From contig JAWLBH010000001.1 of assembly GCA_041395025.1 (NCBI GenBank), positions 120,001 to 152,000 of the forward strand: a stretch of DNA of 32,000 nucleotides. The letters run 5' to 3'. The number at the start of each line of letters is the position of its first letter. Position 1 is the first letter of the stretch. Shown in pieces: positions 4,744 to 29,417 of the stretch. The notes under the pieces are model-generated. The model was not told where the DNA came from. It did no database searches and was given only the letters and a program-made list of their open reading frames with translations. Source of the DNA: Chlamydiales bacterium. Lineage in GTDB: Bacteria; Chlamydiota; Chlamydiia; Chlamydiales; JAAKFR01. Position numbers and translations under genes: made by a program.

Positions 4744-4764
4744 ATATCTAAAAATTTATCGAAC

Positions 4765-5493
4765 TTAATAAATCTGAAGCTTATAAAAAAGAACCTCTAG
4801 ACAAGTCAGAAGTTTAATAGAACGCTCTAAACCCATACGGGCTTCTTGTAGTGCCTTTTCTACATAATCAATCGGAAAAAGAGAAGCGGATTGAATGTGT
4901 TTATGGTAATCTGGATAAGTAAGATAGCGTTCTCCTCCTTTTATGTTTAAGAGCAATCGATCACGATACCAATTTAGCACTGCTTCAAAAAGCTCTTCAA
5001 GTTCTTTTCCTTCTTCAATAGATTCGAGAGGTTCTTTTTGAGCCAAAACATCTAAAATCTTATGTCGACTTGTTTTATGAGGAGCAATAAAATCAATTCT
5101 TCGACAACGGGAAAGAATAGTAGGTAAAATTTTTTCAGGATAATAAGAAACAATAATGATCACTGTAGATTTTGCGGGTTCTTCAAAGATTTTTAGAAGA
5201 GCACTACTACTTGTCAAAAGCATTTTATCAGCTTCATAAATAATGAATACCTTCCACTTAGCTTCATAAGGCACAAACCCTACTTCATAAGCTAGATTGC
5301 GTAAAGTTTCGATCGAATGCATATTTGCTTTTCCATGAGGAAAATATTCATGCAAATCTGGATGTGGGTAGCGCCCTAAAAGGGCGATAGCAAATTGACG
5401 AGCTTTCTGTTCAATCTGAGCTTCTTTAGTTCCAACAAAAAAAAGAGCATGTGGGATTTTATTAGAAGCGATCATGTCAGAAAGAATATCCAT
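4765..5493 (-). CDS. holB: DNA polymerase III delta-prime subunit
   Basis: Degenerate P-loop region HALFFVGTKE, FEEP box and sensor motif ILSRCRRIDF. Located downstream of tmk. I prefer the ATG at 5493 (MDILSDMIASNKIPHALFF) over the TTG at 5505 used by the ORF track. Confidence 0.8.
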   Translation of the reverse strand: MDILSDMIASNKIPHALFFVGTKEAQIEQKARQFAIALLGRYPHPDLHEYFPHGKANMHSIETLRNLAYEVGFVPYEAKWKVFIIYEADKMLLTSSSALLKIFEEPAKSTVIIIVSYYPEKILPTILSRCRRIDFIAPHKTSRHKILDVLAQKEPLESIEEGKELEELFEAVLNWYRDRLLLNIKGGERYLTYPDYHKHIQSASLFPIDYVEKALQEARMGLERSIKLLTCLEVLFYKLQIY

Positions 5494-5501
5494 TTTGTTT
5501 A

Positions 5502-6164
5502 TCAAGACTTAAAAGGTAAAAAATTCTGAAGCCGGTGGAAGCAAGATTGCACTACAAATTCTAATGGTTTAACAGCATCAATGATTGCAATTCGACCAGG
5601 ATATTGATTAGCTAAATCAAGATAACCTTGGCGTGTCTTTTGATGAAATTGCAGCATTTCCTGTTCTAATCGATCGCATGTATTTCTCTCTCGATGTTTT
5701 AAACGTTCCATCCCAATCAAAGGATCAAGATCTAGTAAAAAAGTTATATCTGGCTCTAGTCCTCCTGTAGCTAGTTGACATAATTTTTCAACATATTCTA
5801 AACCTAAATCACGACCATAACCCTGATAAGCAATAGAAGAATCATTAAATCGATCACACACTACAACTTCTCCCCGGTAAAGAGAAGGTGAGATACTATC
5901 TTCGATATGTTGAGCACGAGCGGCTAAAAAAAGAAAAAGCTCAGCACGATTTCCAATTTTATAATGATTTTTAGAGTCTAATAAAAGATGGCGTAGAGCT
6001 TCAGAAAGGAGAGAACCACCTGGTTCACGTGTAGCCATGACTGAATAACCATAGGATTCAATGATTGTTTTAAGGTGTTTACAAACTGTAGTTTTCCCCG
6101 ATCCTTCTCCTCCTTCAATTGTGATAAAAAGTCCCGGATAAGATGGATTATTCCTCTTCTTCAC
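5502..6164 (-). CDS. tmk: Thymidylate kinase
   Basis: P-loop ITIEGGEGSGKTT, DRF motif (VVCDRFNDSSIAYQG) and a lid region. GTG start overlaps the gyrA stop by 17 nt. Confidence 0.9.
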   Translation of the reverse strand: MKKRNNPSYPGLFITIEGGEGSGKTTVCKHLKTIIESYGYSVMATREPGGSLLSEALRHLLLDSKNHYKIGNRAELFLFLAARAQHIEDSISPSLYRGEVVVCDRFNDSSIAYQGYGRDLGLEYVEKLCQLATGGLEPDITFLLDLDPLIGMERLKHRERNTCDRLEQEMLQFHQKTRQGYLDLANQYPGRIAIIDAVKPLEFVVQSCFHRLQNFLPFKS

Positions 6165-8628
6165 TAACCAATGCCTCTTTCTCCTCTACTCTTGCTAATT
6201 TTTCAACAGCAATTAGAGAATCTCCGCTTTTAAGATTTACAAGCTTTACACCTTGTGTTGCACGGCCCATAACACGGAGATCACGCATACTAATACGAAC
6301 AGTTTGCCCCTGAGATGACATCATCAAAAGACCATCTTCATTTAATACAGAAACAGCAGCAAGAACATTCCCATTCCGTGTATTTGTAATGATAGATCGG
6401 ACTCCCTTTCCCCCTCGGTTTGTTTGACGAAAATCTTCTACGTAAGAGCGTTTTCCAAAACCATTTTCACATACAACTAATATGGTACTTTTTTCATTAT
6501 CAATGATTTCACAACCAATGACATAATCATTTTCTTTACCTAAAGTCACCCCTTTGACTCCTCGAGCAGATCGCCCCATTGCACGGACATGTTTATGATC
6601 AAAACGCACTGCCATCCCTTGATAAGTAAAAAGCATGACTTGTTGATTTTCTCCAACTAAATGGGCTGCAATTAACTCATCTCCTTCTTCAATTTCTAGA
6701 GCACGAATCCCCTTTCGTCTTGGATGACTAAAATTAGATAAATCAGTTTTCTTTACAATGCCTCTTTTTGTCGCCATAAAAACATAACGATCAGAATTAA
6801 AGTCTCTGGTTCTTAAAATAATTGCAATTTTTTCTCCTTCTTGGAGATCTTCAATAAAATTCACAAGAGCTTTACCTTTAGAACGACGTTCTCCTTCAGG
6901 TAGCTGCCATACCTTTAACCAATAACAACGTCCAAAATTCGTATAAATTAACAAATAATCATGAGTAGAGGCGACGTAAACTCCTTTTAGCTTATCTGTT
7001 TCACGTCTCATATTAAATCCAGCAACCCCTTGTCCTCCTCTTTTTTGTTCACGAAATGTATCCATAGGCATCCGTTTAACATAATCATCTTGAGAAATTG
7101 TAATGATCACCTGTTCATCAGCAATTAAATCTTCTACATTAAAATCTTCTTCTGCCTGAACAATTTGTGTTTTACGAGGAGAATGATGAGCTTTCTTAAC
7201 TGAAGTTAATTCTTCAGCAATAAGATTGCGTAGCTTTTCTTCACTTGCTAAAAGCTCGCGATAATAGTGAATTTTTTTTAGCAATTCCTGATAATCAGAA
7301 TTAATCTTATCTTGTTCCAGTCCAGTTAATTGATAGAGACGTAGTTCCAAAACAGCTTTCGCTTGACGCTCTGAAAACTTAAAACGAGCAATCAGATCCC
7401 TATAAGCCTCTTCTCTGTTTTTGCTAGAACGAATAATTCTCACTACCTCATCAAGATCCTCAATCGCTTTTAGATAGCCTTCTAAGATATGCGCACGTGC
7501 TTCAGCTTTATTTAGATCAAAGCGAGTTCGTCGGCGAATGACTTCTATTCGATGATGAATCCACGCAAGAATCATTTGCTTGATATTCATGATACGAGGT
7601 AAGTTTTTATCAAGAGCAAGCATATTACAACCAAACGTCGTCTGCATATCAGTGAACTTATAAAGTTGATTGACAACTACATCAACAATTTCTCCTTTTT
7701 TTAACTCAAGAACAATACGCATCCCCTCTTTATCCGATTCATCTCTTACATCACTAATCGCAGTCACTGTTTTATTGTTTACAAGTTCAGCAATCTGCTC
7801 AACAAGACGAGATTTATTGACGTTATAGGGAATTTCATCAATCACAATCCAATCTCGATTGCGATGATCTCGATTCTCTTCGATATGAAAAGTTCCACGA
7901 CAAATCAATCGTCCACGACCCGTATGATAAGCATCATAAATTCCTTTATATCCACAGATCAAACCACCTGTTGGAAAATCAGGGCCAGGCATCACTTTCA
8001 TGATTTCCTCTATCGTGGCTTCCTCATACTTCATCACTAACAGAGTAGCATCAATCAGCTCCATCAAATTATGAGTAGGAATATTTGTCGCCATTCCAAC
8101 TGCGATACCAGAAGACCCATTACATAAAAGATTAGGGAATTTTGCAGGAAAGACAGTGGGTTCAACTCTAGTCTCGTCATAATTGGACACCATATCCACA
8201 GTTTCTTTATCAAGATCTTCCATAAGATGGAGAGCATTGCCAGTAAGGCGAGCTTCTGTATAACGCATTTGTGCTGGAGGGTCACCATCTACTGAACCAA
8301 AATTCCCTTGACCATCAATAAGACAATATCGCATTGCCCAATCTTGAGCCATCCGTACTAATGTCGGATAAATGACAGATTCCCCATGTGGGTGGTAGTC
8401 TCCGGAGGTATCTCCGCAAATTTTCGCACACTTCCTATGCTTAGCTCCTGGTGTCAAGTTGAGTTGGCGCATTGCATATAAGATACGCCTTTGAGAGGGT
8501 TTTAACCCATCACGTACATCGGGAAGAGCTCGAGAAATAATTACTGACATTGAATAACGTAAGTAACTTTCTTTCATTTCATCTTCAAGATTACGAGTCA
8601 AAATCGTTTCATTTTCTCTAAAAGGCAT
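6148..8628 (-). CDS. gyrA: DNA gyrase subunit A
   Basis: 826 aa. Contains LKPSQRRILYAM, YHPHGESVIY (QRDR region), active-site Tyr in AQMRYTEARL, C-terminal beta-pinwheel repeats and an acidic tail. Confidence 0.97.
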   Translation of the reverse strand: MPFRENETILTRNLEDEMKESYLRYSMSVIISRALPDVRDGLKPSQRRILYAMRQLNLTPGAKHRKCAKICGDTSGDYHPHGESVIYPTLVRMAQDWAMRYCLIDGQGNFGSVDGDPPAQMRYTEARLTGNALHLMEDLDKETVDMVSNYDETRVEPTVFPAKFPNLLCNGSSGIAVGMATNIPTHNLMELIDATLLVMKYEEATIEEIMKVMPGPDFPTGGLICGYKGIYDAYHTGRGRLICRGTFHIEENRDHRNRDWIVIDEIPYNVNKSRLVEQIAELVNNKTVTAISDVRDESDKEGMRIVLELKKGEIVDVVVNQLYKFTDMQTTFGCNMLALDKNLPRIMNIKQMILAWIHHRIEVIRRRTRFDLNKAEARAHILEGYLKAIEDLDEVVRIIRSSKNREEAYRDLIARFKFSERQAKAVLELRLYQLTGLEQDKINSDYQELLKKIHYYRELLASEEKLRNLIAEELTSVKKAHHSPRKTQIVQAEEDFNVEDLIADEQVIITISQDDYVKRMPMDTFREQKRGGQGVAGFNMRRETDKLKGVYVASTHDYLLIYTNFGRCYWLKVWQLPEGERRSKGKALVNFIEDLQEGEKIAIILRTRDFNSDRYVFMATKRGIVKKTDLSNFSHPRRKGIRALEIEEGDELIAAHLVGENQQVMLFTYQGMAVRFDHKHVRAMGRSARGVKGVTLGKENDYVIGCEIIDNEKSTILVVCENGFGKRSYVEDFRQTNRGGKGVRSIITNTRNGNVLAAVSVLNEDGLLMMSSQGQTVRISMRDLRVMGRATQGVKLVNLKSGDSLIAVEKLARVEEKEALVSEEEE

Positions 8629-8638
8629 GATGAATATC

Positions 8639-11468
<2,830 letters not shown>

Positions 11469-11726: not shown

Positions 11727-12047
11727 TTATTGAGCGGTCTCTACCAGATCATTAGGTGTAGTGTTCTCAAACATAGATTTCCTTACAAATTTTGGATAAA
11801 CTAGATAGGTTGCCAAAGATAACAATGGGATTGTTCCAAACACAATTCCACCGGCTGCTATAAAATAGACGACTCCTCCTCCAAATATTCCAGTTGCAGC
11901 TACAGTCGCTACAATGGCAATAAAAACGGCTGAAATCAAGGCCACCAATCCACCAACTTTCCGGTTAGTCGAAGGGTATATCATAGTAGGTTTCCAAGCT
12001 TCTAAAGGCTGTGATTTACTTTGTTCGAAATTTACTAGTATTGACAT
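11727..12047 (-). CDS. Small membrane protein with bilobed hydrophobic domain (Inc-like candidate)
   Basis: 106 aa. ATG with GGAG 9 nt upstream. Residues about 31-83 form two hydrophobic lobes separated by GGG (GGLVALISAVFIAIVATVAATGIF-GGG-VVYFIAAGGIVFGTIPLLSLATYLV). The N-terminal 30 aa are hydrophilic. Confidence 0.6.
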   Translation of the reverse strand: MSILVNFEQSKSQPLEAWKPTMIYPSTNRKVGGLVALISAVFIAIVATVAATGIFGGGVVYFIAAGGIVFGTIPLLSLATYLVYPKFVRKSMFENTTPNDLVETAQ

Positions 12048-12298: not shown

Positions 12299-14164
12299 TC
12301 ATTGTCGAGCTACAATCATTTCCTCAATTGCTAAACGAAGACTTTTTTTCTCTTCGGTAGTTGGATAACGAAAAATTAAACCAAAACTAAAATAATATCT
12401 ATTAGGAACTAGACAAGTAGTAATTTTCCCTAAATAAGGACCTAATTGAAGCATTTTATGAAAATCCAGATCAACCGATGTAATTAAAGAATAAAAATAA
12501 TCTAAATCCTCTTGCATGCGAATCGTATACTTTTCTTCTTTATCCAGTTCCTCTTCTAGAATCATTAAAAAAAGTTTTTTTATCGGTTTCATAGGAAGTA
12601 GACTACGCATAGTTGAAGGAACCAAGGAATAAAAATAGTTTTCAAGTAAAAAAGCCTCTTCTTTCGTTTGATGACCTAAATGTCTTTTTAATCTATCAAA
12701 AAGCTCGCTCTCTTGAGAAATCATCCCTCCGTTATAATCTCTAAATTCCCCAATGAGATAAGTAAGCTCTGAGGCAATTTTTTTACGTGCTTTATAAAGA
12801 TCAATCACATGATTTCTTCGAAAAAAATCACCTTTTGAAATTCTCAGACGAAAAACCGAGGCTTCTTTATGGTATTTTTTACGCAGTGTTCCAACGATTT
12901 TCTGTCTATCTGGAATGAATTCAAGAAAGGTGTGTTTTGCTTTAAAACAGTCACTGATCGGAAGTGTGTCTTGTTTGACTAATCTTACCACAGTAATAAG
13001 AAATTCAAGCTGTTCTTCCATTTGTTGACTAAATTCAATCATTACCTGAGGCAAATCGCGAACAAATTTAAGCTGATTACTTAATGTAAGAATATTACGT
13101 ATAATCATCTCTTCATTTTGAGGCATGAATATAGGATTTAATCGTGATTCAAATCGATTTTTCAGCTCTTGAGGAAGCTCTATTTTTAGAATTTTTTGTT
13201 CTTCTAGGGTAAAAAAGCTGTCCTCTTTTTCAATTTCAATATAAGCCATACAAATTTGGTCTGATTGACGTTTATGATGCAGATAGGATTCAGGAACTTT
13301 TCTCGCTGTAGGAATAATTGCCTGAATTCCACTTAGAATATGACGTGATTCAAAAATTTCATGATCATGAATATAACTTAACCCAATGACAATTCCCAGA
13401 ACAGGACGACCATAACGAATCTTTGCACGAATCAATTTGACACTAATGTACCGTCTTTCAGGAAAAGTTTCGAGTGAGAGCTGCAGTGCGCGTCCAAAAA
13501 GGTAATAGACACAAATAATACGACCAATATGACGATAACTTCTATCTTTCTTGAATCCTTCTTTAGAGATGACAAGAAATCGATGCATTTCTGACAAAAG
13601 ATCATAATCAAAATCCTGAGGACGTTTTTGAATGAGCGAGGTAATGACCTCTTGAATCAAAATATTTTTTTCATCTAATCTTAATCCTTTCATTTCCAAG
13701 ATTCGGCATGCCTGGTAATAGGATTTTAAACCAAGATGAATTTCATTTTTTAGAAGAGGTAGATTATTTTGAATAGCTCTAAGTTCAAATAAATTTCTAA
13801 TTTGAACCATGACCTCTCCTACAACATATTTTTGGTCATGAAGATGGGGAAAAGAAAAATCAGCTGCAAATTGTAGAATAGGATTTAAACGCTTATCTGG
13901 AATCAACCAACGACTGATCATTTCATAGAAGAAATGAAATGCATTAGGCCGAAAATGGCAACAGAGAAAAAAAGAGAGATTGAATGGAGGCTGACTAAAC
14001 TGAGTTGCAGAGATCATCGGAAGTTGGGTATTAAAATGAGAGAAAGATTCCTGGTCTTTAAAAAAATTAGAAGGAAAAAGCAGATCTAAAATTCGATGAA
14101 CTGCTCTCATACAAAATGGACTTTTTTTCTCAAAATTATCTGGAATACGCAGATAGTTATTCAT
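12299..14164 (-). CDS. Hypothetical protein, free-standing copy of the ~620-aa module also found at the N-terminus of ORF 24407..27850
   Basis: Long intact ORF with block-wise similarity to residues 1-636 of the 1147-aa ORF. I prefer the ATG at 14164, which has AGGAG 6 nt upstream and overlaps the kinase stop (ATGAATAA), over the TTG at 14179. No signal peptide or TM segment is evident. Confidence 0.8.
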   Translation of the reverse strand: MNNYLRIPDNFEKKSPFCMRAVHRILDLLFPSNFFKDQESFSHFNTQLPMISATQFSQPPFNLSFFLCCHFRPNAFHFFYEMISRWLIPDKRLNPILQFAADFSFPHLHDQKYVVGEVMVQIRNLFELRAIQNNLPLLKNEIHLGLKSYYQACRILEMKGLRLDEKNILIQEVITSLIQKRPQDFDYDLLSEMHRFLVISKEGFKKDRSYRHIGRIICVYYLFGRALQLSLETFPERRYISVKLIRAKIRYGRPVLGIVIGLSYIHDHEIFESRHILSGIQAIIPTARKVPESYLHHKRQSDQICMAYIEIEKEDSFFTLEEQKILKIELPQELKNRFESRLNPIFMPQNEEMIIRNILTLSNQLKFVRDLPQVMIEFSQQMEEQLEFLITVVRLVKQDTLPISDCFKAKHTFLEFIPDRQKIVGTLRKKYHKEASVFRLRISKGDFFRRNHVIDLYKARKKIASELTYLIGEFRDYNGGMISQESELFDRLKRHLGHQTKEEAFLLENYFYSLVPSTMRSLLPMKPIKKLFLMILEEELDKEEKYTIRMQEDLDYFYSLITSVDLDFHKMLQLGPYLGKITTCLVPNRYYFSFGLIFRYPTTEEKKSLRLAIEEMIVARQ

Positions 14165-14948
14165 ACACTGCTCCTGCAAGCTTAAGATTTGATTGTGAAA
14201 TCACCGTACCTTCTCCGGTCAAGTCTAGAAAAGAACGTACATGTAATGGAAGTGCATTGTTTTTAGCTAAAACAAGGGCTCGATTGTGAAGAACACGTCC
14301 TCCACTTGTATTGACAATTTCCAGTGCTTCATCAAAAGATAATTGAGAATAAAAAAAAGCTTGTGGATCATGGATTGGATCTTTAGAAAAAATCCCCTTA
14401 ACATCTTTATAGAGTTCAACTTTTTCAGCTCCAAGGGCAATCCCTAAAGCAACAGCTGAAGTATCTGACCCACCTCTTCCAAGAGTAGTAATCTCTTTAT
14501 TCTGACTCACACCTTGAAAACCAGCTACAATGACAATTTTTCCTTGATTGAGAGAGAGAATAAGACGTTCTGGTCTCACAGAAAGGATCCGCGCTTCTCG
14601 ATGTTGATTTGTTGTCAAAATACCAGACTGACTCCCAGTAAAGCTGACTGCATCAACCCCCTTAGCTGCTAGAGCCATAGCTAAAAGTGAAATACTAATC
14701 CTCTCACCAGCACTTACAAGCATATCATATTCACGTTCAGGAGGAGAGGGATTAATCCGAAATGCAAGAGAGATCAGATTATCTGTCATCCCACTCATGG
14801 CACTGACAACAACAACGATATGAAAATATTCTTTTTTTCTTTCTAGAATAAGATCCGCTAAGCTAGAAAAAATCTCAGGATTTTTTAAAACTGCTCCCCC
14901 AAACTTCATAATGAGGGTTTTCTTTTTTTCTGATAGACTGTTTTCCAT
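14157..14948 (-). CDS. lysC: Aspartokinase-like amino-acid kinase, catalytic domain only (no ACT domains)
   Basis: MKFGGAVL, VVVVSAMSGMTDNL, GERISISLLAMALAAKGVDAVSFTG, TTLGRGGSDTSAVALG and YKDVKGIFSKDP follow the aspartokinase pattern. The ORF ends about 20 aa after the kinase core. The start is ATG at 14948 or 14909; the 15068 start in the ORF track is unlikely. Confidence 0.75.
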   Translation of the reverse strand: MENSLSEKKKTLIMKFGGAVLKNPEIFSSLADLILERKKEYFHIVVVVSAMSGMTDNLISLAFRINPSPPEREYDMLVSAGERISISLLAMALAAKGVDAVSFTGSQSGILTTNQHREARILSVRPERLILSLNQGKIVIVAGFQGVSQNKEITTLGRGGSDTSAVALGIALGAEKVELYKDVKGIFSKDPIHDPQAFFYSQLSFDEALEIVNTSGGRVLHNRALVLAKNNALPLHVRSFLDLTGEGTVISQSNLKLAGAVYE

Positions 14949-16771: not shown

Positions 16772-18109
16772 TTAGAAAATATATGCATCCCAATCTCCAT
16801 ATTTTTCTTTAATTTTTCCTCGAAAAATAGACAAACTAATAATACACATTGAGATCACGACTATATGCCAAATAAATAGAAGGGTTGCACCAGAAAGAAC
16901 AAACGTAGATATAATAAGCCATAGAGCAATAGCTATATTCATCAATCTTAGAGCACGAACCACCTCTGCCCAAGAAATAATCGAAAAAACGATAATCAAG
17001 GCACCACAAACATCTATATTATCGGCTAGTATTCCTTGGCATCGAAAAATATCTTTTGAAAATAATAACCATCCCCCAATTAACGCTGTGATTAAAAGAT
17101 TCCATTGAATTTTTACCCCAAAAAACATCGATTGAATGATTTTCCTAGGAGCTTCACTGAAGCTAGATGTCTGATGGTCAGAGCTTGTGATACTATCTAA
17201 CGTGTATTTTGAACCCATAAAAAAAGTACGCCAAAAGGGTTTTTTTTCACGACGAATTTGGGACAAATACTGGCAAACGGCAACCACTTCGTCAATAGTT
17301 AAAGCGAGCATAATAAGCATACAGGTTGCGATAATTAAACAAAGACCGCACCAAGCACCGACAACAATTGGCTGAAGCATGACAAGAGTAATGCTCACAA
17401 AACCTAGAGGAACAACCAGAATTCCAAATATTACCACTATCCAAGGCATTGTATGCCAACGACGCACTCCTCCTTTTGCTCCCATAATCGCTTCCAAAGA
17501 ATAGGCCATTGCCCCTAACCCTGCATCAGGAACAGGAAAATCATGCGAAATCATAGAGGTGATCACTTTTTCGGTTCCTAATCCAAAAAATGGATCCCAA
17601 ACAAAATGAATATAGTGAAGTTGAAAAGCTGCCATATAACGGGCAATAAACCATCCTACAATAGCAAAAAAAATCACTGGAATTCTTTGAGACCATGCGG
17701 AGGGGTTGTAAGTCCAACCATGAGGAATTTCAGGGCCAATTTCAAACTGATAGGGTCTTAAAGGGACTAAGACACAAAATGAAATAGCAAGTACCCCGAT
17801 CAGGGTATCATTCACATAAATCACAGGTTCTTTAGCCCAAAATACAAGTGGAGCAAATTGAAGCCAAATTCCCACAATGGCACCTGTCCAAATCCAACCA
17901 CTCAATTTCTGCTTCATTGATATGCCACCAAAAATAATCAATAGAAATCCAGAAATCCAATCACTGTAATGCAACCTGGAATCAATATATCCGAAAGATT
18001 CTGGGCTCATTAACAACCAAAAACCTAGAAAAATCATTCCAAACCGAGTCCAAATCATTTTATTGTGAAATTCTCGATAAATTCTATTGTACTCCTTTTC
18101 ATTCACCAT
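16772..18109 (-). CDS. Polytopic membrane protein, VKOR-like core with intramembrane CxxC, flanked by SPW-like repeats
   Basis: 445 aa with 10 or more hydrophobic segments. The central stretch VITSMISHDFPVPDAGLGAMAY...AWCGLCL resembles the VKOR pattern (V-L-x-S...F-G-I-P...L-G...Y, then a TM CxxC). Four W-L-rich repeats (GFWLLMSPESF, GIWLQFAPLVF, GGWLLFSKDIF, ALWLIISTFVL) are also present. Assignment is from memory of family patterns. Confidence 0.45.
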   Translation of the reverse strand: MVNEKEYNRIYREFHNKMIWTRFGMIFLGFWLLMSPESFGYIDSRLHYSDWISGFLLIIFGGISMKQKLSGWIWTGAIVGIWLQFAPLVFWAKEPVIYVNDTLIGVLAISFCVLVPLRPYQFEIGPEIPHGWTYNPSAWSQRIPVIFFAIVGWFIARYMAAFQLHYIHFVWDPFFGLGTEKVITSMISHDFPVPDAGLGAMAYSLEAIMGAKGGVRRWHTMPWIVVIFGILVVPLGFVSITLVMLQPIVVGAWCGLCLIIATCMLIMLALTIDEVVAVCQYLSQIRREKKPFWRTFFMGSKYTLDSITSSDHQTSSFSEAPRKIIQSMFFGVKIQWNLLITALIGGWLLFSKDIFRCQGILADNIDVCGALIIVFSIISWAEVVRALRLMNIAIALWLIISTFVLSGATLLFIWHIVVISMCIISLSIFRGKIKEKYGDWDAYIF

Positions 18110-20837: not shown

Positions 20838-21197
20838 ATGGAAAAAGTCTCTAAAAAAAAAATTGATGAGCTAGAAGAGCGAATGAAATATCTTTCAATC
20901 TCTGATCAAGATCTTCTTGAAAAATTTATTACTGGAAGTGGGCCAGGAGGACAAAAAATCAATAAAACATCTTCATCTGTTTATCTCAAACATCTACCAT
21001 CAGGCATAGAAGTCAAGTGTGGTAAAACACGATCTAGGGAAACTAATCGATTTCTAGCTCGTCGTGAATTATGCGAACAAATCCAAAAAAAAAAATTTGG
21101 ACTTAAAACTCTGAAAGAAAAATTTTTAGATAAAATACGAAAACAAAAAAAACGACGAAATCGGCGTCAAAGATCTCAAAATCCTAAAACTGATTAA
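20838..21197 (+). CDS. Stand-alone RF-1 (GGQ) domain protein, ArfB/ICT1-like peptidyl-tRNA hydrolase candidate
   Basis: 119 aa. SGPGGQKINKTSSSVYLKHLPSGIEVKCGKTRSRETN is colinear with domain 3 of class I release factors. Strongly basic C-terminal tail (KIRKQKKRRNRRQRSQNPK). Confidence 0.75.
   Translation: MEKVSKKKIDELEERMKYLSISDQDLLEKFITGSGPGGQKINKTSSSVYLKHLPSGIEVKCGKTRSRETNRFLARRELCEQIQKKKFGLKTLKEKFLDKIRKQKKRRNRRQRSQNPKTD
21085..21095 (+). repeat. A11 homopolymer inside the GGQ-domain ORF (codons QKKK)
   Basis: Counted directly: caa aaa aaa aaa ttt. Confidence 0.95.
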
Positions 21198-21253
21198 CTA
21201 TATATTTAATAAAAAAATTATTATTGGTAATATAGAAATATTTAGGAATTTTG

Positions 21254-21916
21254 ATGCGTTTTATTAAACCTCTTGTACTAATTACTTGTTTTTTACTCAT
21301 CGCAATTGTGGTTTTTTACTATCACTTATTTTTGAAACAACCTCTAGAACCAATCCCTATGACAACACAAAATAACCCTACAATTGGATATCAAAAGGCC
21401 CAAGTTCATGTAGTGGTATTTGAAGAACCAAAATGCAAGAATTGTAAGGTTTTCAATAATGAAATTTTCCCAACTATCAAAAAGCAATTTATTGATACGA
21501 ACAAAATTCTATATACCACAATCCCTGTTTCATTCTTACCAGACTCCATGCCCATGGCAGTGGGAGCGCTGTGTGCCTATTATGCTGATCCTCAATATCC
21601 AAATTATGAGATGTTTGGCAAATACTGTAACTATATCTACTCTTTTGAATCTGATCATGAGGAGGGTCTGATGAACCTTGATACACTGACTGAATTTAGT
21701 AAAACACTCTCTCTTGGAATGGATATTTCTCAATTAAAAGAGTGTATTCAAACCCAAAAATACCGTGTTCAGATTGAAAAAAATACTGATTATGGAATAG
21801 AAATAATGAATGGAATGATTTCTACACCAACAGTTTATGTAAATGGAATTGAAGTTAAAGAAAGGACAATTGAGGGTATTTCAAAATTAATTCAAACCTA
21901 CCTACAAGAAGAATAA
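21254..21916 (+). CDS. Membrane-anchored DsbA-family thiol:disulfide oxidoreductase
   Basis: N-terminal TM segment (LVLITCFLLIAIVVFYYHLF). Thioredoxin-fold active site FEEPKCKNCKVF and a cis-Pro region (ISTPTVYVNG). The extra Cys pair (C..YY...C) could form a second disulfide. ATG at 21254, directly after the TTG in the ORF track. Confidence 0.75.
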   Translation: MRFIKPLVLITCFLLIAIVVFYYHLFLKQPLEPIPMTTQNNPTIGYQKAQVHVVVFEEPKCKNCKVFNNEIFPTIKKQFIDTNKILYTTIPVSFLPDSMPMAVGALCAYYADPQYPNYEMFGKYCNYIYSFESDHEEGLMNLDTLTEFSKTLSLGMDISQLKECIQTQKYRVQIEKNTDYGIEIMNGMISTPTVYVNGIEVKERTIEGISKLIQTYLQEE

Positions 21917-21919
21917 AAA

Positions 21920-22351
21920 GTGGCTCGTAGTCTTTCCTTATATTTAGCATGGTTATTTGCCTCGATAGGAATACTTGCTAGTCTATATTTTAGTCATATT
22001 TCTCATTTTGAACCCTGCTATATATGTTGGTATCAGAGAATCTGTCTCTTTCCTTTAGGGATTATTCTAGGAATAGCTGCTTATAAAAGTTTTCTTAATA
22101 TTACTATTTACATACTTCCTCAAGTCATTATAGGCTTTCTTTTTTCTGTTTATCAAATTGCTATCCAAGAATTTCCAAATTTAAATGGAATGAGTCTATG
22201 TGGGAAAGAGTCAAATTGTATAAATAAATATGATTTAGGACTTGGTTTCATAACTATTCCTATGCTTTCTGCCATTCTCTTTCTGGTCGTCGGTTCTCTG
22301 CTGCTGTTTAGCTGGAAATATAAGAGTCAAAAGAAGGATGATCATTTTTAA
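21920..22351 (+). CDS. dsbB: Disulfide bond formation protein B (short BdbC-like type)
   Basis: 143 aa with 4 TM segments. First pair in EPCYICWYQRI (the classic PCxxCxxQR motif), second pair in the loop SLCGKESNC. GTG start 3 nt after the DsbA-like stop. Confidence 0.8.
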   Translation: MARSLSLYLAWLFASIGILASLYFSHISHFEPCYICWYQRICLFPLGIILGIAAYKSFLNITIYILPQVIIGFLFSVYQIAIQEFPNLNGMSLCGKESNCINKYDLGLGFITIPMLSAILFLVVGSLLLFSWKYKSQKKDDHF

Positions 22352-23216: not shown

Positions 23217-23759
23217 TTAATTTATATATAAATATATCTTAGAACCAAATAAATCATTTAGTTCTACTGTGCGAATAGGAATCCATCCAGGAATGGAAAA
23301 GGTATTTGTGATAATCCACGTTCCGGGTTTCATTTCTTTTTTAAACTTGCTTTTTAACTTCTCCATTGCTTTTGGATAAAGATAACAAACCACAAGATCT
23401 GCTTCTTTAATGGAGATTTTAAGAAAGTTTTTTCTAGAGATTTTAAGGTTATGAATTCCTAGTATTTTTTTTAATCCTAATGAAACAATCCATGGAAACC
23501 AAGAGCCTTCAAAAGCATGAATCCATGCCCAAGGATAATGTTTGGCTAAAGAACAGGCTAAATTCCCCCATCCTGACCCTAATTCAAAAACATTTTTTGG
23601 AGTTTTAGGTAGTAGAGAAAATAAGGCTTGTTTCGCCTTATAGGAAGTAGGCATAGGAGAAATCCCATAGTATAATGAAAATCCTACAATCGATATGCTG
23701 ATCAGACAAGTAACAATTATAAAAATTAGTATGATCATTTTATTCTCAATTCTGATCAA
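23217..23759 (-). CDS. Class I SAM-dependent methyltransferase-like protein, possibly N-terminally membrane-anchored
   Basis: Motif I-like VFELGSGWGNLA and post-I DLVVCYL. N-terminal hydrophobic segment MIILIFIIVTCLISISIVGF if the start is 23759 or 23738. An alternative start at 23654 would remove it. Confidence 0.55.
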   Translation of the reverse strand: MIRIENKMIILIFIIVTCLISISIVGFSLYYGISPMPTSYKAKQALFSLLPKTPKNVFELGSGWGNLACSLAKHYPWAWIHAFEGSWFPWIVSLGLKKILGIHNLKISRKNFLKISIKEADLVVCYLYPKAMEKLKSKFKKEMKPGTWIITNTFSIPGWIPIRTVELNDLFGSKIYLYIN

Positions 23760-24081
23760 TATAATTGCTGTATGGGCAACAGGATATATCCTTCCTGGTA
23801 TTCATATAAAAAACTTTGTTACAATTATTTTAGTGGCTGTGATCTTTGGTATTACAAATTCTACCTTACGCCCGATACTTTTTATTCTCACATTGCCAAT
23901 CAATATACTTACAATGGGACTGTTTTCTTTTGTCATTATGGGATTGATTGTCTACTTTGTGAGCATGATTGTGCCTGGATTTATTATTGATAACTTTATC
24001 TCAGCTATTTTCTTCTCTTTAATTTTCTCTCTGATTCGCTCATTTCTTACTTTTTTTACGACTCCTAGTCATAAATTTTAA
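23731..24081 (+). CDS. DUF360 / YvlD-type small membrane protein (Pfam 'phage holin 4_2' family)
   Basis: About 116 aa with 4 TM segments. The pattern INIIAVWATGYILPGIHIKNF...NSTLRPILFILTLPINILTMGLFSFVI is typical of the YvlD/DUF360 family. Start set at the ATG at 23731. Confidence 0.6.
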   Translation: MIILFSILINIIAVWATGYILPGIHIKNFVTIILVAVIFGITNSTLRPILFILTLPINILTMGLFSFVIMGLIVYFVSMIVPGFIIDNFISAIFFSLIFSLIRSFLTFFTTPSHKF

Positions 24082-24406
24082 CACCTGATCAAACGGATAA
24101 AAAAATCCAAAATACTTGTGTTTAATTAAAAAATAAGACCCTTACATCGAATAGAAAATTCTTATACTTAGCGAATGTTCATGATGAAAATTTTTTAATT
24201 TACCCTCTTCTTGTTTTATAAAATGGATCCATAGAGAAAAAATCTAGATCCAACTAAATCTATTTAAAAATTCCTAAAGTCAAATCCTTTGGCTACTTAA
24301 AACCGATTTAGTATTCTTCCTATTTTAATATTTTTATCAAAAAATAATTAAAATTGGATTTAAAAAATATAAATCTGAATACTGCTCTCAGAAGGAGAAC
24401 TGGAAC

Positions 24407-27400
24407 GTGGTTCAAAAACAAAAATCTTTTTCAGAAAAAAATGACTTTCAAATACATAAACAACACATGTTTAGTCTTATAAAAAAGATTTTTGGTGATG
24501 AACTAACTGGTCAAGAAAATCCCACAAAAAGACTTCCCCTATTTAAGTGGAAAATTTCACCATTCACTCCTGGAGCATTTTTCTTTTATCTTCTATTCCC
24601 TTCTGACTGGAATCGAAATGCGATTTTATTTGTCGAAGATATTTTAACCAATTACCTAGTTCCTAATAAACAATTGAAACTTCTATCCTCTAGAAATCTA
24701 GATTTTTATCCAGCGACTTCTGGAACACCTCTATTTTTTATAGAGATTTCTATTTACATTCCTAACAAAAAAATTCTTCAAATCATCGAAAAAAGGCTCC
24801 CAGAAATTGTAGATAAAATTAAGGCAAGTACCTTTTCATCGGGTTATACTAAATCTATGCTCAAAATGAAGAACTTCCTATTCGATGAAGATATTACTTA
24901 TATTCACGACTTAGTAACTAAGTTAATTAGTCATTACCCTAAACATTTTTCAAATGATATTTTCCGTGATATCCAACATTTTATGTCCCATTTTCATCAG
25001 GAATTTAGAAAAATTCGCCAACTACACCATCTTTGCCGAATTATTTGCACCCACTACCTTTTCCAAAAATCTCTAGAAAAAGAAATGAAACTCTTTCCTC
25101 ATAATCGCCATGTCTATCTAAGGTTGATGCAAACCTATCTCCGTTATCCATTTGGTTTAAAAAAAGTTCTTGGTTTAGCAATCTGTCTGAATTCTCTTCA
25201 AAATTATGAATTCTTTGAACTTCGCCATATTATTAGAGCAATTCAACGGATTATTCCTAATATAAGAGCCTTACAAAACACTTATTATTCACATAAAAAT
25301 GAAGAGAATCGATTACTCACTTTTTATCTTGAAATTGAAAAAAGTAATAGGAAAAATTTTAATTTAGAAGATATTAAAAAATTAAAAAAAGAGCTACCTA
25401 GCGAACTAAAAAATAGTATTGAATATCTATCTCCCTCCCTTTTTATTCCACGTAATGAAGAAGAGCTTATTCGGAATATCGTGAACTTAAGTCAAGAATT
25501 AAGATTTGTTCGAGACATTCCTCAAGCTATTATTTCTTTTCAAGAACAAAATAATCATATTCTAACATTTAACATCATTCTTCTTCGCGTTCTCGATAAA
25601 AATAGTTGCGATCTTCATTCTCTGGTCCATCTTCTTCCTGAAAATGTCCTCTTCATCTCTGAACGAACTGCAAATGTCGGTTATCTTCGTAAAAAATATA
25701 TTAAAGAAGCGAATATTTTTTCTGTAAAAATTGATAGTCAATTGTTTCTACGTAAAAATCACTCAGTTGACCTATTAAAAGCTCGTCAATATGTAGTTCA
25801 AGCAGTTGAGAAAATGATCGGGCCTTTTCGTGATTATAACGGCGGATTTTTGATAAAACAAAATGAACAACTTGAAGCAATTACATTAGCAATAGGACCA
25901 GCAGCAAAACAAAACGCTCTTTTACTTGAAAATTTTTTCTATTCACTCAGCCCTTCAGTCCTACAAACCTATATCGATCCCCAAAAAGGAAAAATTCTTT
26001 TTTTGCTACTTCTTACCACTCTACAAACTCCAATCCCTCACCAAGCAAGGTATCTAAAAAAAACCCATATTGAACATGATTCATTAGCAATAGTCGTAAA
26101 ATCAACAGATCCTGAAATTAATAATACACTAGCTAAAGCTATCGATACACTCAATATTGATCCTTTACAACTCGCTTTTGCTGTAATAGAAGTAGACTGT
26201 TTTTATTATCAATGTTATCTTTATCTTAACCCAACTAAAAAAGAAGCAGATCACTTTATTAAAGTGATTGAAAATGCGATCTTTTCTTTGATTAAAGAGA
26301 ATCTTAATCAACAGATTCTCTATTTTCATCTTCCTCGTGCCGCACAATCGCTTGATCCTCGTATTGGTGCTGATTGGACCTCTGGTATCATCATTCGAAT
26401 GCTCTATGAAGGATTAATGCGTATTACAGAAATAGGTTATCCTGAACCAGCTATTGCTCAATCCTATACTCTTTCTGAAGATAAGAAAACCTATTGCTTC
26501 TATCTAAGAAAAACCATTTGGTCTAATGGAATGCCTCTAACAGCTTATGATTTCGAATATGCTTGGAAAAAAATTCTTGAACCAAACTTTGAATATTTTT
26601 ATTCATTTCTTTTTTTTCCAATTAAAAATGCTAGAGCTGTGAAAAAAGGAGAAATGCCAATGAGTGAAGTTGGTATTCAAGTATTGGATTCTTATACTCT
26701 TGTAGTTGAACTTGAATATAGTTTCTACGCATTCCTCTCTTTAGTAGCAAGTTGGATTTATTCTCCTCTATGTCGAGAAATTGACCAACAGTATCCCGGA
26801 TGGGCTTATCATAATGTTGAAAATTATGTATGTAATGGCCCTTTTAAGCTGAATATTTGGGAACTTAACCATGAACTACAAGTCATAAGAAATCCTAACT
26901 ACTGGGATGCTTCATCTGTGAAGCTCGATAAAATCCAATTTAGTATTATTAAGAGCGAAAAAGCGGCTTTAGATCTATTTCTACATGGGAAAGCTGATTG
27001 GGTAGGTGACCCCCTTATCAAAATCCCTATAAATCAAATTGAGTCTTTGAAAAAAAAAAACTTACTCAAAACTTCCAATACAAATTATGCTCTCTTCTTA
27101 ATGCATCTTAATGGTGAATATATTCCTTTTCAAATTAAAAATATGAGAAAAGCCTTCGCCTACTGTATTAATCGGGAAGAATTAATCAAAAATATTCTTC
27201 AAGCGGATTACCTACCTGCTTATGGATTTGCTCACATCCCTCCTAAAAACCAACATCTTTCAATTCCTGAAAACGATCCCGAATTAGCAAAATTTCATTT
27301 TAAAAAGGGTCTTGATGAACTTGGAATTACACTTGAAGACTTTCCTCCGATTTTAATCACTCATAGTGATATCGAAGAACAAGAAAAAGTCAGTCGTGCA

Positions 27401-27850
27401 ATCGGAAAAACATGGGAAACTGTTTTAGGAATCCGAGTAATATACGAACAAATTCCTTGGAATTCTTACCTTGAGTCAATTCATAAAGGAGAATGTATGG
27501 TCGGTGCTTTGACCTGGTATTCACGCTATGAACATCCTTGCTATTTCTATGATCTCATTGTTTATCAGGAAGAGGCTAATCTTCATGCCACAACTTGGAA
27601 AAATCCAAAATATGCGTATTTAATTAAAAAAGCTAAACATGCTGACGAGTTGTCTGTTTGCATCGATTTGCTAAATGAAGCAGAAAAAATCCTGATGGAA
27701 GAAATGCCAATCATTCCTCTCTTTTATCAAAGGTTTCATTATGTCAAAAATTCACGACTAAAAGGGTGTATTCTTTCGAATACAAACCAAATCGATTTCC
27801 GATCTGCTTATCTAGAAAACACAACCAAGGAAACCAATGCAATTAAATAA
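24407..27850 (+). CDS. Fusion protein: ~636-aa module of unknown function plus OppA-type (family 5) solute-binding domain, no signal peptide
   Basis: Uninterrupted 1147-codon ORF. GTG start with AAGGAG about 8 nt upstream. Residues 1-636 are paralogous to ORF 12299..14164. Residues about 637-1147 are paralogous to the downstream OppA lipoprotein (for example TAYDFEYAWKKILEP, IRNPNYWDASSVKLDKI, ADWVGDP). Confidence 0.85.
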   Translation: MVQKQKSFSEKNDFQIHKQHMFSLIKKIFGDELTGQENPTKRLPLFKWKISPFTPGAFFFYLLFPSDWNRNAILFVEDILTNYLVPNKQLKLLSSRNLDFYPATSGTPLFFIEISIYIPNKKILQIIEKRLPEIVDKIKASTFSSGYTKSMLKMKNFLFDEDITYIHDLVTKLISHYPKHFSNDIFRDIQHFMSHFHQEFRKIRQLHHLCRIICTHYLFQKSLEKEMKLFPHNRHVYLRLMQTYLRYPFGLKKVLGLAICLNSLQNYEFFELRHIIRAIQRIIPNIRALQNTYYSHKNEENRLLTFYLEIEKSNRKNFNLEDIKKLKKELPSELKNSIEYLSPSLFIPRNEEELIRNIVNLSQELRFVRDIPQAIISFQEQNNHILTFNIILLRVLDKNSCDLHSLVHLLPENVLFISERTANVGYLRKKYIKEANIFSVKIDSQLFLRKNHSVDLLKARQYVVQAVEKMIGPFRDYNGGFLIKQNEQLEAITLAIGPAAKQNALLLENFFYSLSPSVLQTYIDPQKGKILFLLLLTTLQTPIPHQARYLKKTHIEHDSLAIVVKSTDPEINNTLAKAIDTLNIDPLQLAFAVIEVDCFYYQCYLYLNPTKKEADHFIKVIENAIFSLIKENLNQQILYFHLPRAAQSLDPRIGADWTSGIIIRMLYEGLMRITEIGYPEPAIAQSYTLSEDKKTYCFYLRKTIWSNGMPLTAYDFEYAWKKILEPNFEYFYSFLFFPIKNARAVKKGEMPMSEVGIQVLDSYTLVVELEYSFYAFLSLVASWIYSPLCREIDQQYPGWAYHNVENYVCNGPFKLNIWELNHELQVIRNPNYWDASSVKLDKIQFSIIKSEKAALDLFLHGKADWVGDPLIKIPINQIESLKKKNLLKTSNTNYALFLMHLNGEYIPFQIKNMRKAFAYCINREELIKNILQADYLPAYGFAHIPPKNQHLSIPENDPELAKFHFKKGLDELGITLEDFPPILITHSDIEEQEKVSRAIGKTWETVLGIRVIYEQIPWNSYLESIHKGECMVGALTWYSRYEHPCYFYDLIVYQEEANLHATTWKNPKYAYLIKKAKHADELSVCIDLLNEAEKILMEEMPIIPLFYQRFHYVKNSRLKGCILSNTNQIDFRSAYLENTTKETNAIK
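27050..27060 (+). repeat. A11 homopolymer inside the fusion ORF (codons KKKN)
   Basis: Counted directly: ttg aaa aaa aaa aac. Confidence 0.95.
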
Positions 27851-29417
27851 ATTTTTTTTTCTCTTATTAGTTATCAGTTCTCTAAATGCATGCAATAACC
27901 AAAAAAACACAGGAAATAAAAAAATGACTTGTCCTCAAGTGCTTCATATTAACCATCAAGGAAACTATACATCGGCTCATCCTCATACAGGAGTAGATTT
28001 TGGCTGTAGAAATTTGCAAAAAGCTCTTTTTGAAGGATTAACTCGTCACAATAGTGAAGGACTACCAGAATTAGCTGGGGCTGAAAATGTAGAAGTTTCT
28101 CCAGACAAAACCCAATATATCTTTACTCTTCGACCTATGTTATGGACAAATGGAAAAACAGTGACTGCTTTTGATTTTGAACGATCATGGAAAGAAGCTA
28201 TTTCTCCTCAATCCAATTGTCTACGACCCGATCTTTTTTACCCAATTAAAAATGCTAAAAGAGCCAAAATCAAAGAAGTTTCTATTGATGATGTAGGAAT
28301 TAAAGCAATTGATGACAGAACATTAGTAGTGGATCTTGAACATCCTACGCCTTATTTTCTTGATTTAACTGCGAATGCTGTCTTCTATCCTCTCTATGAC
28401 AAAAGTGAAGAACCAACTGTCTTTAATGGCCCATTCTTTCTTAAAAAATGGAATTTTAGCCAAAATATTATTCTGAAAAAAAACCCTAAATATTGGGATG
28501 CTGAAAATGTGAAATTAGAAGAGATTGATATTTCCCTTGTAAGTGATCCTAATACTGCCATTCTTATGTATGAAAAAGGAGAAATTGATTGGGTGGGTCA
28601 TCCTTTTACTTGGTTACCTCTAGATACTATAAAAAAAATGTCAGAATCTCAAGAATTTAACAGTCAACCAATTGCTGGTGTCTATTGGATTACTTTAAAT
28701 AATGACACTTTCCCTCTTAGTTCTGCTAAAATTCGCCGTGCTTTATCAGCGGCAATTGATCGAAATTTAATTGCTGAACATGTGGCATTGGGTGAGATAG
28801 TAACTAACACACCTATTCCTACTTACTTATCTTTAGTCAATCCAAATGAAACCTATCTAGGAGATTTTAACGTAGAATATGCAAAGCAGCTTTTTGAGGA
28901 AGGGCTTAATGAACTTAACCTAAGCCGTAAAGATTTTCCAACTCTTCTCTATAGATATAGTGAAGTGCCGGGACAAAAAAAACTTGTAGAAGCAATTCAA
29001 GAACAATGGGAAAAAGTTCTAGGGATTCAAGTTGAGCTCATTCCTTCCGAATGGAATGTATTTTTAGCTAGTTTAATTGATGGTGAATATGAAGTCGGTG
29101 GATATATCACCTTTAATATGGTGAATGATCCTATGTACATTCTTGAATTTTTTGAACATAAAGAATCTACATATAACATGCCTAATTGGGAAAACTCCCA
29201 CTATCAAAAACTTCTCGCTCTAGCAAGAGCAGAAACAAACCCAGAAATAAGAAATCAACATCTTAAAGAAGCTGAAAAAATGCTCATAGAAGAAAATGTT
29301 GTGATCCCCCTATATATGGTATATGCTAAGTACTTAAAGTCTTCAAAGATTCGCAATCTTACTGTGAACAATTTAGGACAAACAGATCTAAAATCGGCTT
29401 ATATCGAAACAAATTAA
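27837..29417 (+). CDS. oppA: Oligopeptide-binding lipoprotein, ABC transporter family 5 SBP (OppA-like)
   Basis: Signal peptide with lipobox-like LNAC (MQLNKFFFLLLVISSLNAC). SBP_bac_5-type blocks follow (TAFDFERSWKEAISP, KKNPKYWDAENVKLEEI, IDWVGHP). The start overlaps the upstream ORF by 14 nt. Confidence 0.88.
   Translation: MQLNKFFFLLLVISSLNACNNQKNTGNKKMTCPQVLHINHQGNYTSAHPHTGVDFGCRNLQKALFEGLTRHNSEGLPELAGAENVEVSPDKTQYIFTLRPMLWTNGKTVTAFDFERSWKEAISPQSNCLRPDLFYPIKNAKRAKIKEVSIDDVGIKAIDDRTLVVDLEHPTPYFLDLTANAVFYPLYDKSEEPTVFNGPFFLKKWNFSQNIILKKNPKYWDAENVKLEEIDISLVSDPNTAILMYEKGEIDWVGHPFTWLPLDTIKKMSESQEFNSQPIAGVYWITLNNDTFPLSSAKIRRALSAAIDRNLIAEHVALGEIVTNTPIPTYLSLVNPNETYLGDFNVEYAKQLFEEGLNELNLSRKDFPTLLYRYSEVPGQKKLVEAIQEQWEKVLGIQVELIPSEWNVFLASLIDGEYEVGGYITFNMVNDPMYILEFFEHKESTYNMPNWENSHYQKLLALARAETNPEIRNQHLKEAEKMLIEENVVIPLYMVYAKYLKSSKIRNLTVNNLGQTDLKSAYIETN

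Follow-up and report, generated by a model that had tools for sequence, protein, structure and literature searches.

Family-5 solute-binding proteins (SBPs), among them OppA, are textbook extracytoplasmic receptors. The periplasmic-binding-protein (PBP) fold also serves as an intracellular ligand sensor, in the effector domains of LysR-type (AmpR) and LacI-family regulators, and AmpR senses muropeptides. Aspartokinase is the entry enzyme to diaminopimelate (DAP) and lysine and hence to peptidoglycan precursors; to our knowledge, all characterized aspartokinases carry ACT regulatory domains. Here, a gene is described that touches on each of these themes. It is located at 24407..27850 on the plus strand of a 32,000-nucleotide (nt) stretch of DNA from a Chlamydiales bacterium (contig JAWLBH010000001.1, positions 120,001 to 152,000; called the window in what follows). 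Its product joins a 635-amino acid (aa) N-terminal module, which by its predicted topology is an array of ACT*-like units, to a complete OppA-type solute-binding domain that carries no export signal. A free-standing paralogue of the module is encoded elsewhere in the window, coupled to an aspartokinase that consists of the catalytic domain only. We see about an even chance that the fusion is a cytoplasmic two-part regulatory or sensor protein, in which an ACT-like module (probably the trans-acting partner of aspartokinase) is combined with an intracellular OppA-like ligand domain. The following features are distinguished in and around the gene; AF2 stands for AlphaFold2.

24392..24397, plus strand: Shine-Dalgarno-like AAGGAG, 9 nt 5' of the GTG start, read from the sequence
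24407..27850, plus strand: the whole fusion gene, 1147 codons (1147 aa) without internal stop, encoding the ACT*-array module followed by the leaderless OppA-type SBP domain
24539..24832, plus strand: predicted ACT*-like unit 1, from the AF2 secondary structure
24839..25093, plus strand: predicted helical linker 1, aa 145-229, from the AF2 secondary structure
25112..25414, plus strand: predicted ACT*-like unit 2, aa 236-336, with Y307 invariant and E268, H274, E309 and K312 near-invariant (YLEIEK)
25448..25498, plus strand: PRNEEE loop and helix, aa 348-364, with N350 and E352 invariant
25523..25819, plus strand: predicted ACT*-like unit 3, aa 373-471, with R449, A459 and R460 invariant
25826..25846, plus strand: FRDYNGG motif, aa 474-480, with R475, D476, N478, G479 and G480 invariant
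26051..26305, plus strand: predicted ACT*-like unit 4, aa 549-633, from AF2; its last helix (611-633) leads straight into the first SBP strand
26296..26321, plus strand: perfect 9-bp hairpin followed by a T-rich tail, on the codons joining module to SBP (-12.2 kcal/mol, z = -2.8)
26312..27847, plus strand: complete cluster-C (OppA-type) solute-binding domain, aa 636-1147, without export signal, from Pfam, NCBIfam, PDB search and Foldseek
27524..27526, plus strand: codon of R1040, at the position of OppA Asp419 in alignments to 1B05 and 8ARE
27837..29417, plus strand: canonical exported lipoprotein OppA, 526 aa, the start of which overlaps the last codons of the fusion by 14 nt

The original prediction, made from the letters of the window, had described one uninterrupted open reading frame (ORF) of 1147 codons encoding a single polypeptide, and the sequence confirms the ORF. 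The same protein is found at NCBI (MEZ5314709.1) in a Chlamydiales metagenome-assembled genome, where a contig of 1.3 Mb encodes it. The same architecture was found in the 75 other fusion proteins with which it was aligned (76 proteins in all), at identities from 66 % down to about 28 %. A shorter form of the fusion, of some 950-1000 aa, occurs among the relatives and aligns with only about 78-87 % of the query; unit 1 appears to be missing from this variant, as judged from the coverage figures and not from alignment columns. In the shorter variant at L082 (L numbers denote genomic loci of relatives, P numbers their protein sequences or representatives), the module match covers about 460 residues. 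A sequencing frameshift or a mis-assembly that joined two genes near nt 26300 could be suspected from the hairpin and T-rich tail, which lie exactly at the domain junction and could be the relic of a former intergenic terminator; they may also represent a pause site or have arisen by chance. However, the in-frame architecture is kept by all these other fusions, in independent assemblies and down to the lowest identity, and AF2 gives a continuous helix-to-strand junction at high confidence. The artefact explanation, which retains next to no probability, is effectively refuted; the single ORF stands, and its architecture is conserved in Chlamydiota. In a neighbour-joining tree, one split separates the free aspartokinase-linked proteins from the SBP-fused proteins, the sole exception being P0100 (684 aa), which groups with the fusions. 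Because of this single split, P0100 apart, the fusion is considered to be old and maintained, and the tree indicates one ancient duplication plus fusion that has apparently been kept since.

The C-terminal half matches Pfam SBP_bac_5 (PF00496) at aa 679-1055 (E 4e-60; 204 bits, cutoff 32.4). The OppA-type models of NCBIfam together cover aa ~635-1126, and the NCBIfam OppA match itself spans aa 645-1108. The NCBIfam OppA equivalog scored 170 bits, far under its 947-bit cutoff, which signifies family membership and not OppA orthology. Among solved structures, the domain is closest to B. subtilis OppA (8ARE; phmmer E 7e-91) and to the murein-tripeptide binder DppE (8AY0). Using Foldseek, the SBP half could be superposed on liganded 8ARE with a template-modelling (TM) score of 0.95 and a root-mean-square deviation (rmsd) of 2.1 Å over 512 columns, at 31 % identity. 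At 32 % identity (E 2e-83), residues 636-1137 can be aligned with positions 34-524 of the lipoprotein OppA encoded next downstream. As had been predicted, the match sets in essentially at the mature chain of that protein, approximately 15 residues past its lipobox Cys19. The downstream OppA has a leader, MQLNKFFFLLLVISSLNAC. By contrast, no 19-residue Kyte-Doolittle window reaches 1.6 in either the fusion or its free paralogue, and the fusion has no lipobox; the hydrophobicity scan of the fusion bears out the claim that no signal peptide, lipobox or transmembrane segment precedes the SBP.

Leaderless SBPs of this kind also occur on their own. The stand-alone proteins P0410-P0414 (508-515 aa; 51-55 % identical to the SBP domain of the window protein) begin at the first SBP strand (MTQTQPLRLHLPRAAQSIDPR) without a leader or N-terminal extension, and the neighbouring canonical paralogues carry lipoprotein leaders. 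As the SBP is leaderless even when it stands alone, a cytoplasmic role is indicated. One sublineage shows a stepwise reduction of the fusion, to unit 3 plus SBP or to the SBP alone. Of the module, only unit 3 was kept in the reduced forms P0408, P0409, P0415 and P0416 (657-718 aa), and in P0408 the FRDYNGG motif is degraded to FKDCTP. Within L086 (region 4655-9533), an alpha-amylase gene on the opposite strand is present where the module would be.

In OppA and MppA, the α-ammonium group of the peptide is bound by Asp419 and the carboxylate by Arg413 (PMC3173086). Their places are taken by R1040 and A1034, respectively, in the window protein. Among the 76 fusions, the Asp419 column contains mainly Arg (28), Trp (24), Leu (13) and Phe (5), with Asp in none of the 73 residues listed, and the Arg413 position is occupied by Gly, Thr or Ala. 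Arg at the R1040 position is kept in 96 % of the clade of the window protein, in which the residue equivalent to Val34 is Arg in 89 %, the window protein itself having W657. Within this clade, the pocket-equivalent positions are conserved above the domain average (0.79 vs 0.67), which argues for a functional pocket, the ligand chemistry of which would be non-canonical and would vary between clades. Since the α-amino and carboxylate anchors are substituted, the domain is probably not a conventional oligopeptide binder; its ligand may be anionic or N-blocked, for instance a muropeptide-type compound. Of the peptide or ligand sensor that was originally proposed, the intact ligand-binding domain remains, but a plain oligopeptide is an unlikely ligand now that the terminus anchors prove to have been replaced. 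The downstream OppA has Met at the Asp419-equivalent and Thr at the Trp416-equivalent and may not be a standard oligopeptide binder either.

The N-terminal module had been described as some 636 residues colinear with the whole of a free ORF. Pairwise, residues 71-535 of the fusion align with residues 79-540 of the free ORF 12299..14179 (35 % identity, E 9e-89), and the multiple alignment extends this colinearity to both ends, the C-terminal unit included, so that the description could be upheld. The shared blocks that had been quoted (NEE, RDYNGG, LRKKY.KEA and LLENFFYSL) turned out to be invariant or near-invariant columns across 66 homologues. The residues Y307, N350, E352, D370, R449, R460, R475, D476, N478, G479 and G480 are invariant in free and fused copies and cluster in unit 2, unit 3 and the loop after unit 3. 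The fused module and the SBP half are equally conserved (0.67 vs 0.67). A profile search of 1.84 billion representatives yielded 1004 clusters matching the module, 689 of them at E <= 1e-30, and more than 556 loci of GTDB genomes encode a relative. A large uncurated family, of about 1000 clusters at 50 % identity without a Pfam or NCBIfam model, is thereby exposed. No match to the module was obtained in Pfam or NCBIfam, where the scan of 29 members, at E up to 10, produced no more than isolated, noise-level matches of single members, and none below E = 1 was obtained in the PDB, either by single sequence or by profile.

An AF2 model of aa 1-641, based on the 66-sequence alignment, had a predicted local distance difference test score (pLDDT) of 87.4. 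The ACT*-like units of the module were reproduced in the model of the full-length fusion (pLDDT 86.5; predicted TM score 0.69), in which the first 10 residues are disordered and the loop 342-348 has low pLDDT. The ACT* topology is a variant that has been seen in the N-terminal sensor region of the large glutamate dehydrogenase (GDH) L-GDH180 and in aspartate kinases (PMC8175468). By its modelled secondary-structure topology, the module is a compact array of four such ACT*-like units and helical bundles. Foldseek gave no match in the PDB below E = 1e-3 for the module model; its only high-probability matches were to the ACT-like structures 9c7o (prob 0.99, TM 0.61) and 9c7n (prob 0.92-0.96) and to the L-GDH180 chain (9hux, prob 0.97; 9hv6, prob 0.90; 7a1d reached 0.66), all at E >= 7e-3. 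An internal repeat signal among the four units was not found with hhalign. Insulin-degrading-enzyme/pitrilysin structures ranked first by Foldseek E-value but were rejected (prob 0.08-0.23, TM ~0.1, rmsd >29 Å); an HxxEH motif was not seen on reading the module sequence, no pattern search having been made. The earlier view that the module lies outside known families thus holds as far as sequence matches in Pfam, NCBIfam and the PDB are concerned, but its kind is no longer wholly unknown, being ACT*-like by predicted fold.

The free paralogue of the module and the gene preceding it were delimited as follows.

12299..14179, minus strand: free-standing N-module paralogue, 626 aa from TTG or 621 aa from the ATG at 14164
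14157..14909, minus strand: aspartokinase, catalytic domain only, 250 aa from M54, without ACT domains; the free module gene starts within its 3' end

The end at 14164 given originally for the free ORF is its first ATG; with the first TTG as start, the ORF extends to 14179. If the aspartokinase ORF is called from 15068, it becomes longer by 53 codons, which overlie the divergent Vut_1 gene; M54 is probably the real start. NCBIfam aspartate kinase models are matched only at positions ~3-245 of ~407 (TIGR00657, 248 bits; cutoff 208.7). The enzyme aligns with residues 5-243 of the 421-aa LysC of C. glutamicum (3AAW) and then ends, at the point where the ACT regulatory region of the latter begins. 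The best 120 homologues, which include the enzyme of P. amoebophila UWE25, are all 249-307 aa long. Enzymes of about 250-265 aa are spread over the Chlamydiae, and an ACT-less aspartokinase is a consistent feature of the environmental ones. A description of an ACT-less chlamydial aspartokinase was not found in the literature searched.

Gene neighbourhoods were counted, at the species level, in the best 80 of the more than 556 loci, which are labelled Chlamydiota, Verrucomicrobia or uncultured bacteria. The aspartokinase gene lies directly 5' of the free module on the same strand in 76 of the 80. The median extrapolated gap between the two genes is 36 nt, and they overlap in many loci, including those of the closest relatives. 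The other neighbours in the window (tgt, Vut_1, DciA and gyrB) are kept only in close relatives. In the tree, the free-standing proteins linked to aspartokinase form one clade, to which the free paralogue of the window belongs. In P0348 (825 aa), an AA_kinase domain and the module are joined in frame and, at L012, aspartokinase, free module and SBP-fused copy are consecutive on one strand. From gene order, translational coupling and the one fusion, the free module is most likely a trans-acting allosteric partner of aspartokinase; given a kinase without ACT domains of its own and a coupled module gene, an ACT-type partner acting in trans would be the most economical interpretation. Because aspartokinase is a cytoplasmic ATP-dependent enzyme, its link to the module would put the latter in the cytoplasm, and the fusion along with it.

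Homology of the free module to C. trachomatis CT192, considered because of synteny by gyrB, DciA and tgt, was rejected, as CT192 is the Inc effector Dre1 in the literature. An ORF of 106 aa at 11727-12047 on the minus strand, between DciA and the free module, has a long hydrophobic stretch with two lobes, of the type known from chlamydial Inc proteins. We take it that Dre1 (CT192) lies in the region of this ORF in the gene order of C. trachomatis. A similar hydrophobic stretch is present in a 114-aa ORF between free module and fusion at L012 (7963-8307); these two ORFs are only ~11-13 % identical to the reference sequence of the alignment.

Next to the fusion lies a canonical exported SBP_bac_5 gene, both in the window and at L081, L083 and L084; at L086, such a gene borders the leaderless SBP-only relative. 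The locus of P0411, where a canonical SBP gene is likewise adjacent, has its neighbourhood in common with the fusion at L084 and partly with the window. OppBCDF genes were found neither in the 32-kb window nor in the flanks of the seven loci fetched via fusion or SBP-only relatives, nor at L012 as far as tblastn and ORF listing go. Besides another SBP gene, the usual neighbours of the fusion are a small SH2-like ORF and a MatE gene. Envelope genes are located nearby at L081 and L085 (TolB-like, OmpA-family or Pal-like, LysM, and Asp_Glu_race, possibly MurI) and at L083 (MurJ). SH2 is a eukaryote-type domain, and bacterial SH2 proteins are usually secreted effectors. The SH2-like ORF, of about 125 aa, lies directly 3' of the fusion at L012 (12028-12408; Pfam SH2 26.7 bits, cutoff 21), L082 (11009-11386) and L083 (10678-11064), and the window contains no such ORF; a 97-aa ORF that follows the downstream OppA was rejected as its counterpart, not being homologous to the SH2-like ORFs of the other lineages. 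MatE is next on the same strand at L012 and L082 and is on the opposite strand at L083. Just upstream of the fusion in the window are a putative protein-lysine methyltransferase-like ORF (23217-23759, minus strand) and a four-transmembrane Phage_holin_4_2 protein (23695-24081, plus strand), the divergent starts of which overlap by ~65 nt; this pair is syntenic at L084 and L086. Further upstream, the window encodes two alternative disulfide-oxidation systems close together, namely a VKOR-family protein with SPW repeats (16772-18109, minus strand) and a pair of a DsbA-like thioredoxin and DsbB (21251-22351, plus strand). Between the transketolase and Dsb genes, a stand-alone RF-1 domain protein of 119 aa is encoded that is ArfB/peptidyl-tRNA hydrolase-like (20838-21197, plus strand).

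In the mechanism that we propose, the free module would bind the ACT-less aspartokinase and control it allosterically in trans. The fused copy would do the same, or would compete for the same partner or effector, and its SBP domain would add a second ligand input via the rigid junction at which helix 611-633 passes into strand 637-642. As for the ligand, it would be akin to the substrate of the exported OppA encoded next door, perhaps a muropeptide, and possibly is the very molecule that this OppA helps to import. Of the two locations between which the original prediction had left the choice, a cytoplasmic one is favoured by the coupling to aspartokinase and by the leaderless SBP-only forms; nothing that was found supports type III secretion or another non-Sec route. 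The literature searched contained nothing relevant on cytoplasmic or leaderless OppA-type proteins or on a fusion of an ACT module with an SBP.

Several observations weigh against a cytoplasmic sensor that acts on aspartokinase. The fusion adjoins the aspartokinase gene only at L012, and P0348, the sole AA_kinase::module fusion, is known from two Logan contigs only and may owe its existence to faulty assembly or a frameshift. The module has no sequence-level homology to ACT families (Pfam, 29 members, E up to 10), hhalign of its profile with the single-sequence ACT region of C. glutamicum aspartokinase gave a prob of 0.1, and the ACT* assignment, being derived from the model, rests on the order of secondary-structure elements and not on the strand order of the sheets. 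Pocket residues of the SBP differ between clades, which could mean relaxed or divergent function. Some lineages shed all or most of the module yet keep the SBP, and the function of the latter is therefore not strictly module-dependent. Finally, recognizable signals are absent from chlamydial type III substrates, so that export keeps a small probability.

The loss of the module in some lineages would suit a different division of roles, in which function resides chiefly in the SBP half, which would bind or buffer imported (muro)peptides in the cytoplasm or act on them like a chaperone, and the module is an accessory for oligomerization or scaffolding, unrelated to aspartokinase in the fused copy. 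Stand-alone leaderless orthologues and unit-3-only forms at the syntenic locus agree with this, as does the fact that the fusion usually adjoins a canonical exported OppA, not aspartokinase. However, the fused module retains every invariant residue of the aspartokinase-linked free paralogue and is as conserved as the SBP half, and the module-less forms seen amount to five clusters only (P0410-P0414, at the 51-55 % identity given above); we consider a core role of the SBP rather unlikely. The presence of the dense invariant cluster of polar and charged residues (N350, E352, D370, R449, R460, R475, D476, N478 and GG), which resembles an active site or a phosphate- or carboxylate-binding site, could instead mean that the module is an enzyme or substrate carrier using aspartyl phosphate or a related acyl phosphate, to which the fused SBP delivers a peptide-like co-substrate, and the coupling to a kinase gene would fit metabolic channelling. 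No catalytic fold was recognized, though, the sole fold-level likeness being to regulatory ACT-like domains, and amino-acid-binding ACT sites, as is generally known, also use conserved polar residues, so that an enzymatic module is improbable.

Export by a non-Sec route, type III or other, would have the fusion act in the periplasm, the inclusion or the host, with the module as a secretion, chaperone-binding or host-targeting region. The lack of recognizable signals in chlamydial type III substrates, the disorder modelled for the first 10 residues and the small SH2-like protein encoded next in three relatives could be cited in its favour. Yet the paralogue of the module is coupled to, and once fused with, a cytoplasmic kinase, the module is a compact, well-folded array of 635 aa in the model and not a short secretion signal, and SBP-only leaderless forms exist without any N-terminal extension; the chance of such export is accordingly put low. 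The cytoplasmic sensor is preferred over these alternatives.

A wider reading can be given only tentatively and is, taken as a whole, on the unlikely side: a hitherto unknown feedback circuit of Chlamydiota in which a protein with four ACT* domains would control an ACT-less aspartokinase in trans, while its SBP-bearing paralogue would read a cytoplasmic, imported or recycled cell-wall peptide, such as a DAP-containing or N-blocked muropeptide. If true, this circuit would tie the de novo synthesis of diaminopimelate directly to the import of peptides or the recycling of peptidoglycan, and the fusion would provide the first cluster-C solute-binding domain shown to be a cytoplasmic allosteric sensor. 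A conserved intracellular SBP that is hard-wired to an ACT-type array would widen the known uses of the fold and would add a novel class of sensor for peptides or muropeptides in the cytoplasm. For the module family, a concrete role is offered: it may supply the regulatory part that the ACT-less aspartokinase of environmental chlamydiae lacks. The route to meso-diaminopimelate that aspartokinase opens has a bearing on peptidoglycan, cell division and immune recognition in chlamydiae, and the paralogue pair makes approachable how obligate intracellular bacteria balance the import of precursors against their synthesis.

Compared with known systems, aa 636-1147 of the fusion form a complete domain of the cluster-C family of OppA, MppA and DppE (8ARE, 8AY0, 1B05 and 3O9P). 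Unlike these proteins, the SBP of the fusion has no signal peptide or lipobox and is placed behind a 635-aa module of cytoplasmic type; in comparison with OppA, Arg, Trp or Leu replaces Asp419 and Gly, Thr or Ala replaces Arg413, and no OppBCDF was present at the loci inspected. The β subunit of C. glutamicum LysC (2DTJ/3AAW) and of the other α2β2 aspartokinases, the class to which the window enzyme is most similar (E 3e-60), resembles the module in being a separate ACT-type polypeptide encoded 3' of the catalytic region, and by analogy this separately translated ACT-only subunit may serve as a precedent for the module as a trans-acting partner of aspartokinase. However, the β subunit comprises ~170 aa with two ACT domains, whereas the module has ~630 aa with four predicted ACT*-like units plus helical bundles, the two have no sequence similarity by hhalign, and ACT domains are absent from the chlamydial catalytic subunit itself.

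The N-terminal segment of the large (180 kDa) GDH (7A1D, 9HUX and 9HV6) provided the best multi-domain Foldseek matches, over 307-348 columns at the prob values of 0.97 and 0.90 mentioned above, albeit with E-values of only 7e-3 to 8e-2 and a low TM. In contrast to that segment, the module has no PAS domain that could be seen, no match to Pfam GDH_ACT1-3/HM at E up to 10 and no GDH domain, and its putative partner is an aspartokinase or an SBP instead of a GDH catalytic core. The plant ACR proteins and the C-terminal ACT pair of GlnD are stand-alone or appended multi-ACT arrays that are thought to sense amino acids; they have the canonical β-α-β-β-α-β ACT fold, are recognizable by Pfam, and possess neither helical bundles nor an SBP fusion. 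AmpR and the LacI-family regulators combine small type I/II PBP folds with DNA-binding domains, whereas the fusion, in which no DNA-binding domain was detected, combines a three-lobed cluster-C OppA fold with ACT-like domains. In conclusion, the fusion is a real finding that is explained by no curated family, and the known kinds that it resembles are the ACT-type regulatory arrays and the cytoplasmic PBP-fold sensors.

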